Shown here one piece after another: positions 1,449 through 6,453 of a DNA stretch of 20,000 bases. Location of the stretch: IMG/VR virus record IMGVR_UViG_3300030019_000024; one strand, given 5' to 3'. Positions within the stretch are counted from its first letter, which is position 1; each line of letters opens with the position of its first letter. The DNA is from an uncultured virus (IMG/VR IMGVR_UViG_3300030019_000024). Its lineage: Duplodnaviria > Heunggongvirae > Uroviricota > Caudoviricetes. The notes beneath the pieces are model-generated. The model had not been told where the DNA came from. It was given only the letters and a program-made list of their open reading frames with translations, and ran no database searches. The position numbers and the translations under genes are program-made.

Positions 1449-1466
1449 TTCGTTAAATATATTTTG

Positions 1467-1540
1467 TGATCTGGAAGGGATTCAAACCCTTGACATTTTC
1501 ATTAGAAGTGAAATGCTCTATTCAACTGAGCTACCAAACC
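1467..1540 (-). tRNA. tRNA-Arg(UCU)
   Basis: Cloverleaf; anticodon arm TTTCA-CTTCTAA-TGAAA; T-loop TTTGAAT. Confidence 0.9.
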
Positions 1541-1547
1541 ATTTTTG

Positions 1548-1618
1548 TTGTCCAACAAGGATTCGAACCTTGACACCAAGAACCAAAGACTTGTGTGCTA
1601 CCATTACACCATCGGACA
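1548..1618 (-). tRNA. tRNA-Gln(UUG)
   Basis: TGTCCGA/TTGGACA acceptor; loop CTTTGGT; GGTTCGAATCC. Confidence 0.9.
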
Positions 1619-1640
1619 ATTTAATGTTGTTACTATTATA

Positions 1641-1667
1641 TATATATTATTCTTTTGGTCAAAAGTT
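1641..1667 (-). promoter_or_regulatory. putative phage promoter AACTTTT-N14-TATATA upstream of tRNA-Gln/Arg
   Basis: Same motif and spacing as the copies at 1284, 4753 and 8411. Confidence 0.5.
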
Positions 1668-1676
1668 TAATAAATA

Positions 1677-1725
1677 GTAAAAATAGTTTGTTCTTTTCTA
1701 TTTAGAACAAAAAAGAACAAACTAT
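1677..1725 (-). terminator. hairpin / possible intrinsic terminator after the Gly tRNAs
   Basis: Inverted repeat ATAGTTTGTTCTTTT...AAAAGAACAAACTAT followed by TTTT on the minus strand. Confidence 0.55.
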
Positions 1726-1729
1726 AAAG

Positions 1730-1815
1730 AGCAGAAAAAGGGATTCGAACCTTCGGTGTGATATTATCTTTCCAGCTTGGAAGGCTGGCGAAATCGACCA
1801 CTATGCGACTTCTGC
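1730..1815 (-). tRNA. tRNA-Gly(UCC) with long variable region
   Basis: CCAGC-CTTCCAA-GCTGG; about 17-nt variable region; U73. Confidence 0.8.
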
Positions 1816-1834
1816 ATATAACATTTACATGTTG

Positions 1835-1906
1835 AGCAGATAACGGTAATCGAAACCGCATCCTCGGTATGGTAAACCGATGCACTAACCATTGTGCTAT
1901 ATCTGC
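1835..1906 (-). tRNA. tRNA-Gly(ACC)
   Basis: TCGGT-TTACCAT-ACCGA; GCAGATA/TATCTGC acceptor; U73. Confidence 0.88.
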
Positions 1907-1921
1907 ATATAATATTTAAAG

Positions 1922-1993
1922 AGCAGGTGAACAGAATCGAACTGTCATCCTGAGTTTGGAAAACTCACGCACTAACCATTGTGCTACACCTGC
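1922..1993 (-). tRNA. tRNA-Gly(UCC)
   Basis: TGAGT-TTTCCAA-ACTCA; GCAGGTG/CACCTGC acceptor. Confidence 0.92.
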
Positions 1994-2109
1994 GGTATTT
2001 TACGTCCTGGAAAGGACGGGTTCTACTGTTTTCCTTCATCCTGCAAAATCATTTATAAATCATACTTATAAACATAATTGCAATACTTTAAAATTATTAC
2101 TTTATATAA

Positions 2110-2853
2110 TTAAACTTTAATCCATTTTCTTATTGTATTATCACAAACACCATATTTTCTACCTGTTCCACAATATCCTAATATTTCAACATCTTTAATT
2201 AATTGACTATGTTGGGGTCTATTTTCATTAGATTTTTCTAATCTGAATATTCCTTCACATTTTTTACATTTCATTGACCGTTTATCTATTTCTTTACCAC
2301 AAGAACAAAAATTATTAGACTTTACTTTTGAATTATTTTTTGTTTTTTTTGTCACTATTGTTTTTAATTTTATTTTTGATTCTATTTTATTTATTTTATT
2401 TTTAGAACCAAAATTATCTGTTTGACTATGACAATTTGGACAAAGAACTTTTAAATTATTTAATTCATGATTTCTATTATCACCATCAATATGATGTAAA
2501 TGTAAAGATATATCTTTATCACACCATTTAATTATACCACAATTTTCACATTTATTTTCTTTAAGACCATTTTTTATTAATTTAATTCTTAATAAACCAA
2601 TATTTGTATATGTGGATTTTTTTATTAAAATATCATCTAACGACATTATTTTACCAGGGTATTTATATTTTTCCCCTTTGTTCCATCCTTGACCTATAAA
2701 GTGTGAAATATCAATACTATATTTATTAATTAAATTATGTACTCTTTTATAATTTCCACCTACTGGTCTTATATTTAACATTCTACAAACATCTGCAATC
2801 GAGAAAGATTCTTTAAATATTTTTTTTATTTCTTCTATATCAATAATTTTCAT
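2110..2853 (-). CDS. HNH endonuclease (free-standing homing endonuclease-like) inside the tRNA array
   Basis: CENC...LHLHHIDGDNRNHELNNLKVLCPNCH HNH motif; C-terminal Cys cluster and HTH-like tail. Confidence 0.9.
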   Translation of the reverse strand: MKIIDIEEIKKIFKESFSIADVCRMLNIRPVGGNYKRVHNLINKYSIDISHFIGQGWNKGEKYKYPGKIMSLDDILIKKSTYTNIGLLRIKLIKNGLKENKCENCGIIKWCDKDISLHLHHIDGDNRNHELNNLKVLCPNCHSQTDNFGSKNKINKIESKIKLKTIVTKKTKNNSKVKSNNFCSCGKEIDKRSMKCKKCEGIFRLEKSNENRPQHSQLIKDVEILGYCGTGRKYGVCDNTIRKWIKV

Positions 2854-2922
2854 ATTTTTTTTTAATTATATATTATATAATTAATAGTCAAAAAAAAATA
2901 TACATTTTGCGTTTATGCTTTG

Positions 2923-3003
2923 TACTTGTAGACGGGATCGAACCGTCACGCTTTTCAGCATATGTTCCTAAAACATAGGTGTCTACCATTCCACCATACA
3001 AGC
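2923..3003 (-). tRNA. tRNA-Leu(UAG)
   Basis: TATGT-TTTAGGA-ACATA; class II variable arm. Confidence 0.92.
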
Positions 3004-3008
3004 ATATG

Positions 3009-3095
3009 TACTGATGATGGGAGTCGAACCCACACGCACCTTACGATGCAACAGATTTTAAGTCTGTCATGTATTTCCAGTTTCATCACATCAGC
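3009..3095 (-). tRNA. tRNA-Leu(UAA)
   Basis: ACAGA-CTTAAAA-TCTGT; long variable arm. Confidence 0.92.
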
Positions 3096-3104
3096 ATATT
3101 ATAG

Positions 3105-3187
3105 TAACTTAGATGGGATTCGAACCCATACGTCTTTCGACACTACATTTTGAGTGTAGCATGTTCTACCAATTTCATCACTAAGCC
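3105..3187 (-). tRNA. tRNA-Leu(CAA)
   Basis: CTACA-CTCAAAA-TGTAG; long variable arm. Confidence 0.92.
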
Positions 3188-3193
3188 ATTTTG

Positions 3194-3256
3194 TCGAAGG
3201 GTGAAGATTCGAACTTCAACAATAGCTAAATGCACCGCTATTTCCACATACCTCCG
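3194..3256 (-). ncRNA. D-arm-less tRNA-like element or pseudo-tRNA
   Basis: Acceptor CGGAGG/CCTTCG-A, T-arm TGAAG-TTCGAAT-CTTCA, AATAGC/GCTATT stem with 10-nt loop, no D-stem. Confidence 0.55.
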
Positions 3257-3262
3257 TTATTG

Positions 3263-3349
3263 TACCTAAAGTGGGACTCGAACCCACACACCTACTTTAT
3301 TCGGTAATAGCCTCTTAAACTATCGTGTCTACCATTCCACCATTTAGGT
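3263..3349 (-). tRNA. tRNA-Leu(AAG)
   Basis: ATAGT-TTAAGAG-GCTAT; D-arm nearly identical to Leu(UAG); long variable arm; A73. Confidence 0.85.
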
Positions 3350-3359
3350 ATTTATATTG

Positions 3360-3442
3360 TTGCGAAAATGGGATTCGAACCCATGAAATCTTACGATAAC
3401 ACCTTATGAGAGTGTCCTATTTGACCGCTTTAGTACTTCGCA
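3360..3442 (-). tRNA. tRNA(CAU), Met or Ile2, with long variable arm
   Basis: ACACT-CTCATAA-GGTGT; variable hairpin ATC-GTAA-GAT. Confidence 0.8.
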
Positions 3443-3451
3443 ATATATTTG

Positions 3452-3524
3452 TTCCCCAACCAGGGTTCGAACCTGGATTACTGCATCCAAAGTGCTGTGT
3501 GGTTAGCCATTACACTATTGGGGA
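3452..3524 (-). tRNA. tRNA-Gln(UUG)
   Basis: TCCCCAA/TTGGGGA acceptor; loop CTTTGGA. Confidence 0.88.
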
Positions 3525-3534
3525 ATATTTAAAG

Positions 3535-3618
3535 AGCCTTCTGTCAGATTCGAACTGACGTGTCTTATTCAGATCTTGATTACAAGTCAAGCGCAATCGA
3601 CCACTATGCGAAGAAGGC
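3535..3618 (-). tRNA. tRNA-Thr(UGU) with long variable arm
   Basis: CTTGA-CTTGTAA-TCAAG; variable hairpin TCT-GAATA-AGA. Confidence 0.88.
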
Positions 3619-3630
3619 ATTTTTATTTAA

Positions 3631-3708
3631 TGGTGGAGAATATCGGGTTCGAACCGATGACCCCTTGCTTGCAAAGCAAGTGCTCTAAGCCAACTGAGCT
3701 AATCCCCC
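3631..3708 (-). tRNA. tRNA-Ala(UGC), CCA encoded
   Basis: CTTGC-TTTGCAA-GCAAG; G3-U70; ends ACCA. Confidence 0.95.
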
Positions 3709-3728
3709 ATTATTTACTTTTTAAAGTG

Positions 3729-3800
3729 TGGAGATGTGGGTAATTGAAACCCAATTTATTGGTTGCAAACCAATTGTAATAGCCGTTATACGACACCCCC
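3729..3800 (-). tRNA. tRNA-Ala(UGC)
   Basis: ATTGG-TTTGCAA-CCAAT; G3-U70. Confidence 0.88.
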
Positions 3801-3847
3801 TTGTTGAATTTTTGTTTTTTTATAGAAAAAATTCTAAAATCTACTTG

Positions 3848-3922
3848 GGTGAAAGGCGGGTCTCGAACCCGTGACCTTCTGAACCACAATCAGACGCTCT
3901 AACCAACTGAGCTACAATCACC
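3848..3922 (-). tRNA. tRNA-His(GUG)
   Basis: TCTGA-TTGTGGT-TCAGA; G-1 and C73. Confidence 0.9.
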
Positions 3923-3949
3923 ATATATACTTATTTTTCAATAAGTTTG

Positions 3950-4023
3950 TCGGGATGAAAGGACTCAAACCTTCAATAACCTTGTGACCAAAACAAGTAA
4001 CCTCATCAATGGATCGCATCCCG
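3950..4023 (-). tRNA. tRNA-Pro(UGG), divergent D-arm and U37
   Basis: CGGGATG/CATCCCG-A acceptor; CTTGT-TTTGGTC-ACAAG. Confidence 0.7.
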
Positions 4024-4031
4024 ATATTTAG

Positions 4032-4104
4032 TAGAGTAGACAGGGCTCGAACCTGCGACCTCAACATCCCAAATGTTGTAATCTTCCAACTGATATACTA
4101 CTCT
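4032..4104 (-). tRNA. tRNA-Pro(UGG)
   Basis: CAACA-TTTGGGA-TGTTG; atypical A1-U72. Confidence 0.85.
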
Positions 4105-4109
4105 ATGTG

Positions 4110-4199
4110 GGTGAATAACGAGGCTCGAACTCGCAGGGACCTTTTTTAAAGGTTCAGGGGCCACAACCCTATCGGATACCATTACCGTTTATATTCACC
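4110..4199 (-). tRNA. tRNA-His(GUG) with long variable arm
   Basis: TAGGG-TTGTGGC-CCCTG; G-1/C73; variable hairpin ACCTT-TAAA-AAGGT. Confidence 0.82.
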
Positions 4200-4226
4200 A
4201 TATTAACTTATTTTACAATAAGTTTG

Positions 4227-4299
4227 TCGGGATGACAGGGCTCAAACCTGCGACTTCTTGCTCCCAAAGCAAGCACTCTTTCCACTGAGCTACATCCCG
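4227..4299 (-). tRNA. tRNA-Pro(UGG)
   Basis: CGGGATG/CATCCCG-A; CTTGC-TTTGGGA-GCAAG. Confidence 0.9.
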
Positions 4300-4338
4300 T
4301 TATATTTGTCCAAAATGTCAAAGAACTAATTTTTTTTG

Positions 4339-4410
4339 TGTTTCCAAAGGGATTCAAACCCTTATCGTCTGGTCCGTAGCCAAGTGTTCTATTCGTTGAA
4401 CTATGGAAAC
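4339..4410 (-). tRNA. tRNA-Arg(ACG)
   Basis: GTTTCCA/TGGAAAC acceptor; loop CTACGGA. Confidence 0.88.
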
Positions 4411-4416
4411 ATATTT

Positions 4417-4458
4417 AAAAAAGAAAAACCCAATTCAAGTTTCGTTGAATTGGGTTTT
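4417..4458 (-). terminator. intrinsic terminator (attenuator) between the leader ORF and the first tRNA
   Basis: AAAACCCAATTCAA-CGAAAC-TTGAATTGGGTTTT followed by TCTTTTTT, ending 6 nt before tRNA-Arg(ACG). Confidence 0.85.
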
Positions 4459-4482
4459 GCATATTTCGTTTTATAATCTATC

Positions 4483-4599
4483 TTACATAATAATTATGTT
4501 TTTAGTTATACGATTACACGTACCCAATCCAGTGCCACGACCTCCTTGAGGTAGTTGTGTTGGTTGTAAATGCGCCATATGTAATCTAACTGTTGTCAT
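4483..4599 (-). CDS. putative attenuator leader peptide, 38 aa (MTTVRLHMAHLQPTQLPQGGRGTGLGTCNRITKNIIIM)
   Basis: ATG preceded by an A-rich initiation region; codon content mirrors the downstream tRNA set; contains a segment complementary to the terminator 5' arm. Confidence 0.75.
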   Translation of the reverse strand: MTTVRLHMAHLQPTQLPQGGRGTGLGTCNRITKNIIIM

Positions 4600-4680
4600 A
4601 ATATTAATTTTTACTTGTTTTGTTATTTTTATATATTTAATCAGAAAAGTCGTTTTTTTCCATTTTTTCTGATTGTGATA

Positions 4681-4712
4681 CAAAGGTAATACAAATTTTC
4701 CGAATTACCAAA
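4681..4712 (-). promoter_or_regulatory. Bacteroidota primary-sigma-type promoter TTTG-N20-TACCTTTG
   Basis: Matches the -33/-7 consensus TTTG-N19-21-TAnnTTTG. Confidence 0.75.
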
Positions 4713-4752
4713 TGTTTTTCAATTTATTTTCATTTATTTTAAAAATATACTT

Positions 4753-4779
4753 ATTATAGTATGTTTAATTTAAAAAGTT
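4753..4779 (-). promoter_or_regulatory. putative phage promoter AACTTTT-N14-TATAAT
   Basis: Repeated motif with fixed spacing. Confidence 0.6.
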
Positions 4780-4842
4780 TGATTTATTATTGAATAAATA
4801 CGTTTTATTTTTGAAATAGACTTTTTATTTCTATTTTCTTTA

Positions 4843-4874
4843 CAAAGATAATACAAATAATTGGATTATACAAA
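4843..4874 (-). promoter_or_regulatory. Bacteroidota primary-sigma-type promoter TTTG-N20-TATCTTTG
   Basis: Matches the -33/-7 consensus. Confidence 0.7.
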
Positions 4875-4881
4875 TATTATA

Positions 4882-5661
4882 TCAATCAATACCTAAATTA
4901 AATTTTCTTGCCCAGAAGCATCCTTTATTTAATGCTACTTTTACATCAAACCCATCTAAAATTTTTGGGTGGTGTTTATTTTCTGACCAATCTATATAAC
5001 GTAGGTTATTATTTACGATTGTGTCTTTAAAATCGGAATTCATCAATACTGTTTGGAAATACATTTCATCGGGTATTTGTGAAAATTTAAAAAAATCATA
5101 AAAATATTCTTTTTTTGAAAAATCTTCATATAAAAATAATAGACAGTCATGTGTTATCGAAAACCATTGTGATCCATCATAATATTTTATATTGATATTA
5201 AAAATCCTTTTATCCCCTAAAAATTTCCAAGATTCATCAATATCCCATGATTTAGAAATTCTACTAAACTTTGGTTTATTTGGTAATAAATCATGGTATT
5301 CTATATAATTTTTTCCATTATTTTTTATGAAAAAATCATCTATTACATTTCTACTTACGATAGGTAGACATGAATTACTTAATAGGTGTATATAATCAGC
5401 ATTAAATCCACTTTTTAAATATTCGTCAAATAATTCAAAGGTAGCTTCAATCATACTGAATCCACCCCATTTTACTTGAACACGTTTTTTTATAAATATT
5501 ACATTATCTGAAAATTCAGATAAAGCACTTTTAAACACATCAATATATGATTTAGCATCTATATGTATAAAAATTATATCATTTTTATTAGTTAGTGTTG
5601 AAATCAACTGTCTTAATTGATTTGGTTTATCATGTGCTAAAATTAAGTAAGCAAATTTCAT
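4882..5661 (-). CDS. GT14 / Core-2/I-branching family glycosyltransferase
   Basis: AYLILAH, FIHID, V.WGGFS, GSQWF, PDE..FQT, NLRYIDW, ARKF motifs. Confidence 0.9.
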   Translation of the reverse strand: MKFAYLILAHDKPNQLRQLISTLTNKNDIIFIHIDAKSYIDVFKSALSEFSDNVIFIKKRVQVKWGGFSMIEATFELFDEYLKSGFNADYIHLLSNSCLPIVSRNVIDDFFIKNNGKNYIEYHDLLPNKPKFSRISKSWDIDESWKFLGDKRIFNINIKYYDGSQWFSITHDCLLFLYEDFSKKEYFYDFFKFSQIPDEMYFQTVLMNSDFKDTIVNNNLRYIDWSENKHHPKILDGFDVKVALNKGCFWARKFNLGID

Positions 5662-5679
5662 TCTTAATCTTTTTTTTTA

Positions 5680-6453
5680 TTACATCCCTAAATCAAATTT
5701 TCTCCCCCAAAAACAGCAAGTATTTAATGCTATTTTTAAATCATCATCATTCAATGTTTTAGGATGTTTATTTTTTTCAGACCAATCTATATAACGTAAA
5801 TTATTATTTACTATTGTGTTTTTAAATTCCGTATTTAATAGTATTGTTTGAAAATACATTTCATCTGGTATTTGTATATACTTAAATTTTTCATTATATA
5901 CACCATTATTATATATATTATATAAATATTCTAAACACTCATTTGTTATAGAAAACCACTGTGAACCCTTATAATATTTAATATTGTTATCATATTTTTC
6001 ATTTATTCCATCATATATAATTTCACTATCTTTTAAAATCCATTTATATAAATATCTATAAGAAAAATTATCATATATATTTACCAATTCATAATTTAGA
6101 TAATTTTTATTATTGTTACAGAAGAATTTTTTAATTTCATCATTTGGTTTTATCGGTAAGCATACACCACTTATTAGATGAATATAATTAGCATTAAATT
6201 TACTATTTAGATAACATTCAAAAAGTTTTATAGTTGCTTCTACCATACTGAATGTACCCCAATGTATATCAATTCTATCATCAAGAAAAATAACATCATT
6301 TTTATATTTTTCTAATGCATTATGAAAAATATTAATATCACATTTTTTATCAAGGTGTATAAAAATTTTAGTATCTTCATTTAAAATTGAAGATACTAAA
6401 TAATTTAATTGATTAGGTTTTTCATGTGCTAATATTAAATATGCAAATTTCAT
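5680..6453 (-). CDS. GT14 / Core-2/I-branching family glycosyltransferase (tandem paralog)
   Basis: Same motif set; clearly paralogous to 4882..5661. Confidence 0.9.
   Translation of the reverse strand: MKFAYLILAHEKPNQLNYLVSSILNEDTKIFIHLDKKCDINIFHNALEKYKNDVIFLDDRIDIHWGTFSMVEATIKLFECYLNSKFNANYIHLISGVCLPIKPNDEIKKFFCNNNKNYLNYELVNIYDNFSYRYLYKWILKDSEIIYDGINEKYDNNIKYYKGSQWFSITNECLEYLYNIYNNGVYNEKFKYIQIPDEMYFQTILLNTEFKNTIVNNNLRYIDWSEKNKHPKTLNDDDLKIALNTCCFWGRKFDLGM

Follow-up and report, generated by a model that had tools for sequence, protein, structure and literature searches.

Nineteen tRNA genes on an uncultured-virus contig stand behind a short open reading frame (ORF) and a strong terminator-like hairpin, and the question that this locus raises is whether the position of a ribosome on the ORF decides if transcription passes into the tRNA genes. 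A preliminary description of the leader RNA, read from the letters of the sequence, had proposed exactly such an attenuator, with segments 1 to 4 of the minus-strand transcript entering into mutually exclusive 1:2, 2:3 and 3:4 pairings. The window that we analyzed is a stretch of 20,000 nt and comprises bases 10541-30540 of a 41,387-nt IMG/VR virus record (25.7% GC; completeness rating 7%).

A domain search of the window identified a fused type II topoisomerase, a thymidylate kinase, M15 peptidases, an OmpA-family protein, ankyrin-repeat proteins and two Branch-type glycosyltransferases. The closest relative of the topoisomerase II is encoded by the 'uncultured phage' LR756501.1 (735 kb; 50% identity), and the next closest by LR756504.1 (636 kb; 40% identity). 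Judged by these protein matches, the window is a piece of a huge low-GC phage that is kin to the Bacteroidetes 'Mahaphages' LR756501.1 and LR756504.1. Genomes of this size have been assigned to the 'Mahaphage' clade, for which Bacteroidetes hosts are predicted (Al-Shayeb et al. 2020, PMC7162821), and the word stems 'attenuat' and 'leader' are absent from that article. A search with the topoisomerase II for related loci returned one 16-kb contig, which is without tRNAs.

An origin from a giant virus (NCLDV) was suggested by the fused topoisomerase II, the ankyrin repeats and the Branch-type glycosyltransferase. We rejected this origin because the nearest relatives are huge phages and because the region carries peptidoglycan peptidases, an OmpA-family protein and U-tract terminators. 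The two tandem Core-2/I-branching glycosyltransferase paralogues that lie directly upstream of the leader (4882-6453, minus strand) are 54% identical to one another; a pattern search of IMG/VR, with a single glycosyltransferase or with an alignment of both paralogues as the query, found no relatives of them.

The features of the locus are collected in Table 1.

Table 1. Promoter-like sites, leader elements and tRNA array of the locus, in order of transcription (window coordinates).
Feature	Position	Strand	Basis or remark
Bacteroidota-type promoter-like site TTTG-N20-TAtcTTTG, upstream twin	4843-4874	-	pattern scan
Bacteroidota-type promoter-like site TTTG-N20-TAccTTTG	4681-4712	-	pattern scan
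Candidate phage promoter module GAAAAAANNGACNTTT-N7-AATATATAA	4629-4660	-	sole strict copy in the 41-kb record
Leader ORF, 38 codons + TAA, MTTVRLHMAHLQPTQLPQGGRGTGLGTCNRITKNIIIM	4483-4599	-	sequence reading
Codons 2-19, zone where a stalled ribosome would free the antiterminator	4543-4596	-	ribosome model
Segment 1 (GAUUACAU)	4579-4586	-	in fold, at chance level
Small hairpin ACCUC-AAG-GAGGU	4540-4552	-	folding
Segment 2, antiterminator 5' strand (core 4531-4522; inner helices 4519-4503)	4503-4531	-	pair list; duplex p = 0.004
Segment 3, antiterminator 3' strand (core 4455-4446)	4446-4480	-	folding
Intrinsic terminator (stem 4458-4445 / 4438-4425, loop CGAAAC, U-tract 4424-4417)	4417-4458	-	folding
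Array of 19 tRNA genes	1466-4410	-	ARAGORN, 19; Rfam tRNA model, 18
Unusually long tRNAs	4109-4198, 3359-3442, 3534-3618, 1729-1815	-	ARAGORN

Promoter-like sites of two types precede the leader. The two sites of the first type form a near-identical tandem pair (…ATTTGTATTAyCTTTG) and match what we take to be the Bacteroidota-type promoter consensus, a pattern with 10 full sites in the whole record against 4.3 ± 2.2 expected. Look-alikes of positions 4679-4730 are present on other contigs from the same metagenomes. The second type, the module that stands closest to the ORF, precedes four leaders in LR756501.1 (three strict copies and one variant ending in AATATATAG) and was found in at least 124 IMG/VR stretches. 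We examined 81 instances of this module and detected tRNAs within the 600-nt downstream flank in 27, nearly all of them behind a short ORF. Since other instances sit before genes for tail sheath, head maturation protease and TnpB/IS-type transposases, the module probably represents the structural (late) gene promoter class of this phage clade. Neither type of promoter motif was found between the leader ORF and the first tRNA gene, a tRNA-Arg(ACG) that begins 14 nt past the terminator stem.

The terminator consists of AAAACCCAAUUCAA-CGAAAC-UUGAAUUGGGUUUU (4458-4425; 14 bp; -16.2 kcal/mol) followed by UCUUUUUU. According to the preliminary description, its 5' arm can be captured by a segment of the leader ORF, with UGGAUUGGGU (4531-4522) forming 10 bp, one of them G-U, with ACCCAAUUCA (4455-4446), and with adjacent short pairings extending the helix. 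We find this duplex on the minus strand, and the adjacent pairings, UCGU (4513-4510) with ACGA (4469-4466) and AUAA (4509-4506) with UUAU (4476-4473), both occur in the minimum-energy fold of 4533-4445 together with a further GUGUA/UAUGC helix. The core of segment 3 takes up 10 of the 14 bases of the terminator 5' arm, so that antiterminator and terminator are mutually exclusive.

Neither helix is expected by chance. The antiterminator region 4533-4445 folds at -21.7 kcal/mol, compared to -9.7 ± 2.7 for dinucleotide shuffles, none of which does as well (z = -4.42; 0/200), and the strongest duplex that the ORF can form with the terminator arm reaches -16.1, compared to -9.1 ± 2.0 (p = 0.004). 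The same duplex test gave p = 0.11-0.99 at five other strong terminators in the window. In a transcript that ends before segment 4, the bases of the arm pair upstream with a probability of 0.85-1.0. An 'arm docking' ddG statistic is weaker than the duplex test, with 10/200 for the window and two units not significant. On these statistics and on the related units described below, the terminator and the antiterminator are real, non-random and part of a recurrent design in huge phages.

The same data bear on the reading that the terminator simply insulates and that what precedes it is an unremarkable small gene or a spacer that is not translated, in which case the array would be transcribed by constitutive leak-through and the pairings would have no regulatory role. 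Other genes in the window do end in intrinsic terminators, and the chance-level 1:2 pairing and the equilibrium preference for the terminator, both described below, suit this reading as well. However, the ORF-to-arm match is specific to the leader terminator among the six tested in the window and is unit-specific across the 25 units compared below, and there is neither room nor a motif for a separate promoter of the array. We therefore regard an insulating terminator as unlikely.

The preliminary description further had GAUUACAU (4586-4579) pairing with GUGUAAUC (4519-4512) as the 1:2 element, and an ACCUC/GAGGU hairpin between the two. The hairpin is found where it was placed, and the 1:2 pairing exists and occurs in the fold, but the region 4599-4506 folds no better than its shuffles (-19.4 vs -18.0 ± 3.0; z = -0.47), 56 of 200 of which fold equally well. 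A test of how well segment 2 docks onto the ORF sequence upstream of it gave p = 0.40, and across the family a 1:2-type sequestration of segment 2 has p ≤ 0.05 in 8 of 24 units. The inner stretch of segment 2 (4519-4503) also contains the 1:2 partner, and the direct-path (findpath) barrier from the 1:2 state to the 2:3 state is 12 kcal/mol, an upper bound. Of the classical 1:2 / 2:3 / 3:4 arrangement, then, the antiterminator and the terminator stand, but the 1:2 pairing is at the level of chance; a specific 1:2 element and the three-state logic that goes with it are plausible as a model.

We modeled a ribosome on the leader by removing all RNA up to a point 12 nt beyond the first base of the codon in the A site, an assumed footprint size, and by letting only the RNA 3' of this point fold. 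With the footprint placed at each codon in turn, the antiterminator is intact at codons 1-19, weakened at codons 20-21 and gone from codon 22. The loss at codons 21-22 agrees with the earlier estimate that a ribosome stalled before about codon 20 frees the antiterminator.

The companion proposal, that full translation and no translation would each favor termination, is not a consequence of the thermodynamics. As long as segment 4 is still to be made, the antiterminator has a probability of ~0.97 even without a ribosome, and a ribosome at codons 32-39 leaves it at ~0.97 when the RNA on either side of the ribosome is permitted to pair. Once segment 4 is present, the terminator is favored at equilibrium in every state, and the equilibrium probability of the terminator computed with ribosome footprints is flat, ~0.46 at all positions, and hence uninformative. 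With a ribosome at codon 10, the antiterminated and terminated states are nearly isoenergetic (-30.9 vs -31.8 kcal/mol) and are separated by a direct-path barrier of ~17.6 kcal/mol; the other direct-path barriers from the antiterminated to the terminated state are 11.8-14.8 kcal/mol, and all of these findpath values are upper bounds. Once formed, the antiterminator is thus competitive with the terminator. Because the terminator wins when segment 4 is present and the antiterminator wins earlier even without a ribosome, we infer from this model that the switch must be kinetic and steric in nature. The decision in classical attenuators is likewise kinetic.

Between the end of segment 2 and the stop codon lie 29-37 nt, and a ribosome that waits at the stop codon does not cover segment 2 in the model. 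Since a ribosome parked there leaves segment 2 unmasked, termination of transcription during fast translation would have to come from timing, from steric hindrance or from RNA that refolds once the ribosome has passed.

Codons 2-19 read TTVRLHMAHLQPTQLPQG, and 17 of these 18 codons specify amino acids within the set served by the array (p = 9.7e-8 against a background of 0.334 taken from the long ORFs of the phage). This set comprises nine amino acids, namely Arg, Pro, His, Ala, Thr, Gln, Met, Leu and Gly. None of the array's tRNAs matches the Val at codon 4, and the leader contains no codon for tRNA-Leu(AAG). Codons 20-27 (GRGTGLGT) likewise match the tRNA set, yet they lie in the zone where, in the ribosome model, a stall favors termination; they are partly dictated by the need of this stretch to pair with ACCCAAUUCA. 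Synonymous codons are not tuned to the anticodons of the array beyond the general usage of the phage (P = 0.23 and 0.79).

Covariation among homologs had been suggested as a check on the pairings. At the level of the individual leader this check found nothing to compare, as the searched collections (GenBank phages and metagenomes) contain no diverged homologue of the window leader. A blastn search of 4300-4900 against GenBank phages gave no match, and a metagenome scan with a back-translated GGRGTGLG pattern returned 80 stretches, 78 of which are GC-rich and unrelated and two of which are identical to the window. Four DNA sequencing runs that cover the stretch contained no variant letters in the leader, and a search for RNA runs that include it returned none. 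At the level of the family, by contrast, 24 analogous units from LR756501.1, LR756504.1 and IMG/VR contigs, each with the same promoter module, an ORF of 16-44 codons and a terminator, allowed the match between ORF and arm to be compared.

These units were assembled as follows. Behind the module, 35 IMG/VR instances have a short ORF, 21 of which have a perfect-stem terminator by a strict finder; the other 14 were dropped before the duplex tests. The IMG/VR units, eight units that head tRNA blocks in LR756501.1 and LR756504.1 and the window itself make up 25 distinct units, and nine of these (the window, three in LR756501.1 and five in LR756504.1) have full arrays. Within the DNA read, a tRNA was detected downstream in 21 of the 24 further units. 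For three of the 25, the flank that was read yielded no tRNA, and in one of these three an L7/L12-like ORF follows. In all 25 units the ORF is intact and its stop codon lies 15-47 nt ahead of the terminator, and their sequences are unrelated.

The duplex between ORF and terminator arm reaches p ≤ 0.01 in 16 of the 25 units and p ≤ 0.05 in 21. When each ORF is paired with its own arm, the duplexes total -370 kcal/mol, compared to -218 ± 14.5 kcal/mol when the arms are reassigned, and none of 20,000 reassignments is as good. For the window, its own arm ranks second among the 25 for its ORF, and its own ORF ranks first for its arm. A set of homologous K/H/S/F/W leaders has three different terminator arms (CCCCGAAC, AUCCGAAC and CCUCUAAGUC), each matched by its segment 2. 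This unit-specific match between ORF and arm is, as read from the predicted duplexes, covariation at the level of the family.

The leaders have entirely different sequences, yet each draws on the amino acids of its own array. Among the nine full-array units, the unit's own tRNA set is the best match for eight leaders, and the ninth leader fits the overlapping set next downstream. For example, a leader containing MKTIAMIIRMRIIR stands before Arg/Ile/Met tRNAs, a leader containing IFWHFHF stands before His/Phe tRNAs, and a leader containing KQQYKQYQPQY stands before Tyr/Tyr/Gln/Lys tRNAs. The corresponding test is weak for the IMG/VR units, whose tRNA sets are truncated at the 600-nt flank, and only 9 of 22 own sets rank first. 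Leaders whose composition follows the tRNA set of their own unit, in peptides that otherwise bear no relation to one another, also speak against the insulating terminator considered above.

In all nine full-array units, the ribosome model places the same step at the end of the matched codons, where a stalled ribosome would begin to mask the antiterminator. This observation is pertinent to a switch that works without a ribosome, in which a tRNA (as in a T-box) or a phage or host protein would pick between the 2:3 and 3:4 helices and the ORF would be incidental. Two alternative helices could indeed serve any ligand, and a phage-specific promoter class could bring phage factors with it. However, matched amino acids that stop where the ribosome would begin to mask segment 2 make sense only if the ORF is read, and an ORF of 16-44 codons is kept in 25 of 25 units despite their unrelated sequences. 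Moreover, an Rfam search at the gathering score and at E ≤ 10 returned only tRNAs and noise far below threshold, with no T-box and no leader family. We consider a ribosome-free switch quite unlikely.

It is also conceivable that the peptide itself is the product, as a small regulator or an arrest peptide, and that its Gly/Thr/Arg-rich sequence matters rather than the speed at which it is decoded. An 'RGTG.GTC' stretch is in fact common to the window leader and to the Arg/Thr/Gly leader of LR756501.1. However, leaders of different units resemble one another only in the part that encodes segment 2, and a tblastn search with the window peptide against 50,697 GenBank phage records gave a single match, which we dismissed (E = 1). 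A function of the peptide as such therefore appears very improbable.

Taken together, it is probable, from sequence statistics and modeling, that the unit is a leader-peptide transcription attenuator that gates the phage tRNA array and acts kinetically. This scheme presumes that the leader is translated, that the terminator functions and that the two are coupled with suitable timing, and any part played by the 1:2 pairing is presumed as well. Transcription would start at the phage module (4660-4629) and possibly also at the host-type promoter (4712-4681), and the polymerase would cross the 38-codon ORF into the strong terminator 14 nt short of the first tRNA gene. If the lead ribosome were delayed in codons 2-19, segment 2 would be free to capture the emerging segment 3, and transcription would continue into the tRNA genes. 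If decoding were fast, the ribosome would cover segment 2, or would just have unwound it, as segment 3 appears, and the terminator would form. Since the tRNA products would speed decoding of the leader, the loop would be self-limiting.

The closest parallels to the proposed attenuator are trpL, hisL, thrL and ilvL (of ilvGMEDA), multivalent leader-peptide attenuators that control amino-acid operons in enterobacteria. Like these, the window unit combines a short ORF rich in regulatory codons with a terminator and with an antiterminator that uses the terminator 5' arm, such that ribosome position would pick the fold. As in the thr and ilv leaders, several amino acids would be read together, and the window leader samples nine. 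Unlike the enterobacterial leaders, its 1:2 element is indistinguishable from chance, its segment 2 sits a good distance ahead of the stop codon, and its phage probably has a host in the Bacteroidota, which lack Shine-Dalgarno-led initiation. The genes behind it also differ, being 19 tRNA genes rather than genes for biosynthetic enzymes or synthetases, so that the product would feed directly back on decoding of the leader.

Other known systems share single traits with the window unit. The pheST operon of E. coli, in which phenylalanyl-tRNA synthetase is attenuated through the pheM leader, is likewise a case of leader-peptide attenuation of a translation-apparatus gene that answers the supply of charged tRNA, but it concerns a synthetase and one amino acid and is cellular rather than viral. 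T-box riboswitches likewise choose between terminator and antiterminator to report tRNA status upstream of translation-related genes; they differ from the window unit as proposed in recognizing uncharged tRNA by direct contact with a specifier codon and the T-box bulge and in working without a ribosome. To our knowledge, the leader-peptide attenuators described so far all control amino-acid biosynthesis or synthetase genes. With tRNA genes as targets, the window unit would be a variant in mechanism and would fall outside any described leader family. Judged by titles and the openings of abstracts, a full-text search of openly accessible literature found no description of attenuation of tRNA genes.

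We know of essentially no description of how phages control their own tRNA genes. An attenuator read by a ribosome would mean that a phage gauges decoding speed for each class of codons and tops up only those tRNAs that run short, so that the machinery of translation would itself be under feedback control. Leader-peptide attenuation would moreover gain RNA genes as targets and would be extended into viruses and, probably, into hosts of the Bacteroidota. At ~250 nt the units are compact. They are also modular, with a promoter, a test ORF and a switch, and come in many codon-set variants, which makes them easy to test with reporters, and they could act as natural sensors of tRNA supply.

Three further observations in the related units concern their arrangement and their genes. 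One locus of LR756504.1 (L017, oriented 2508-2956) has two leader-terminator units in series, the first with an Asp/Gln/Tyr/Lys leader before tRNA-Asp and the second with a Tyr/Gln/Lys leader before two tRNA-Tyr, a tRNA-Gln and a tRNA-Lys. In another unit (L070; MKNMVYNINDCIYNDKRKMLIG), an ORF located ~170-470 nt past the terminator resembles ribosomal protein L7/L12 by eye, and leader-terminator units may therefore gate translation genes besides tRNAs. An adjacent pair of tRNAs in LR756501.1 (L012, 690585-690737) has the anticodon CTA, which ARAGORN labels 'Pyl'; these are probably amber suppressors, which would fit stop-codon recoding in this 735-kb phage.

A broader and more doubtful proposal is that huge Bacteroidota phages place each of their tRNA blocks, together with one or more L7/L12-like genes, under the head/tail promoter class and behind self-referential 'test strip' ORFs composed of the block's own amino acids. 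Such ORFs might serve as on-demand sensors of decoding failure, switching on exactly the tRNAs that are missing and switching them off once these have accumulated. If so, the triggers could include host defenses that cleave tRNAs and the decay of host tRNAs late in infection.

The array itself has several unusual features. A 247-codon ORF (2110-2853, minus strand) interrupts it between tRNA-Leu(TAG) and the Gly block. This ORF has no Pfam match at E ≤ 0.001 and carries, by eye, an H-N-H-like motif (HHIDGDNRNH…CPNCH), and it is possibly a homing endonuclease. A second terminator-like hairpin (1683-1725, minus strand), AU-rich and of 20 bp, lies within the array between tRNA-Gly(TCC) and tRNA-Gln/Arg and has no leader ORF ahead of it. 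Several tRNAs (His, 90 nt; Met, 84 nt; Thr, 85 nt; Gly, 87 nt) are unusually long, apparently because of an additional arm or insertion, and the 90-nt tRNA-His is recognized by ARAGORN and not by the Rfam tRNA model. Finally, the array includes the A34 anticodons Gly(ACC) and Leu(AAG), which are unusual in bacteria.
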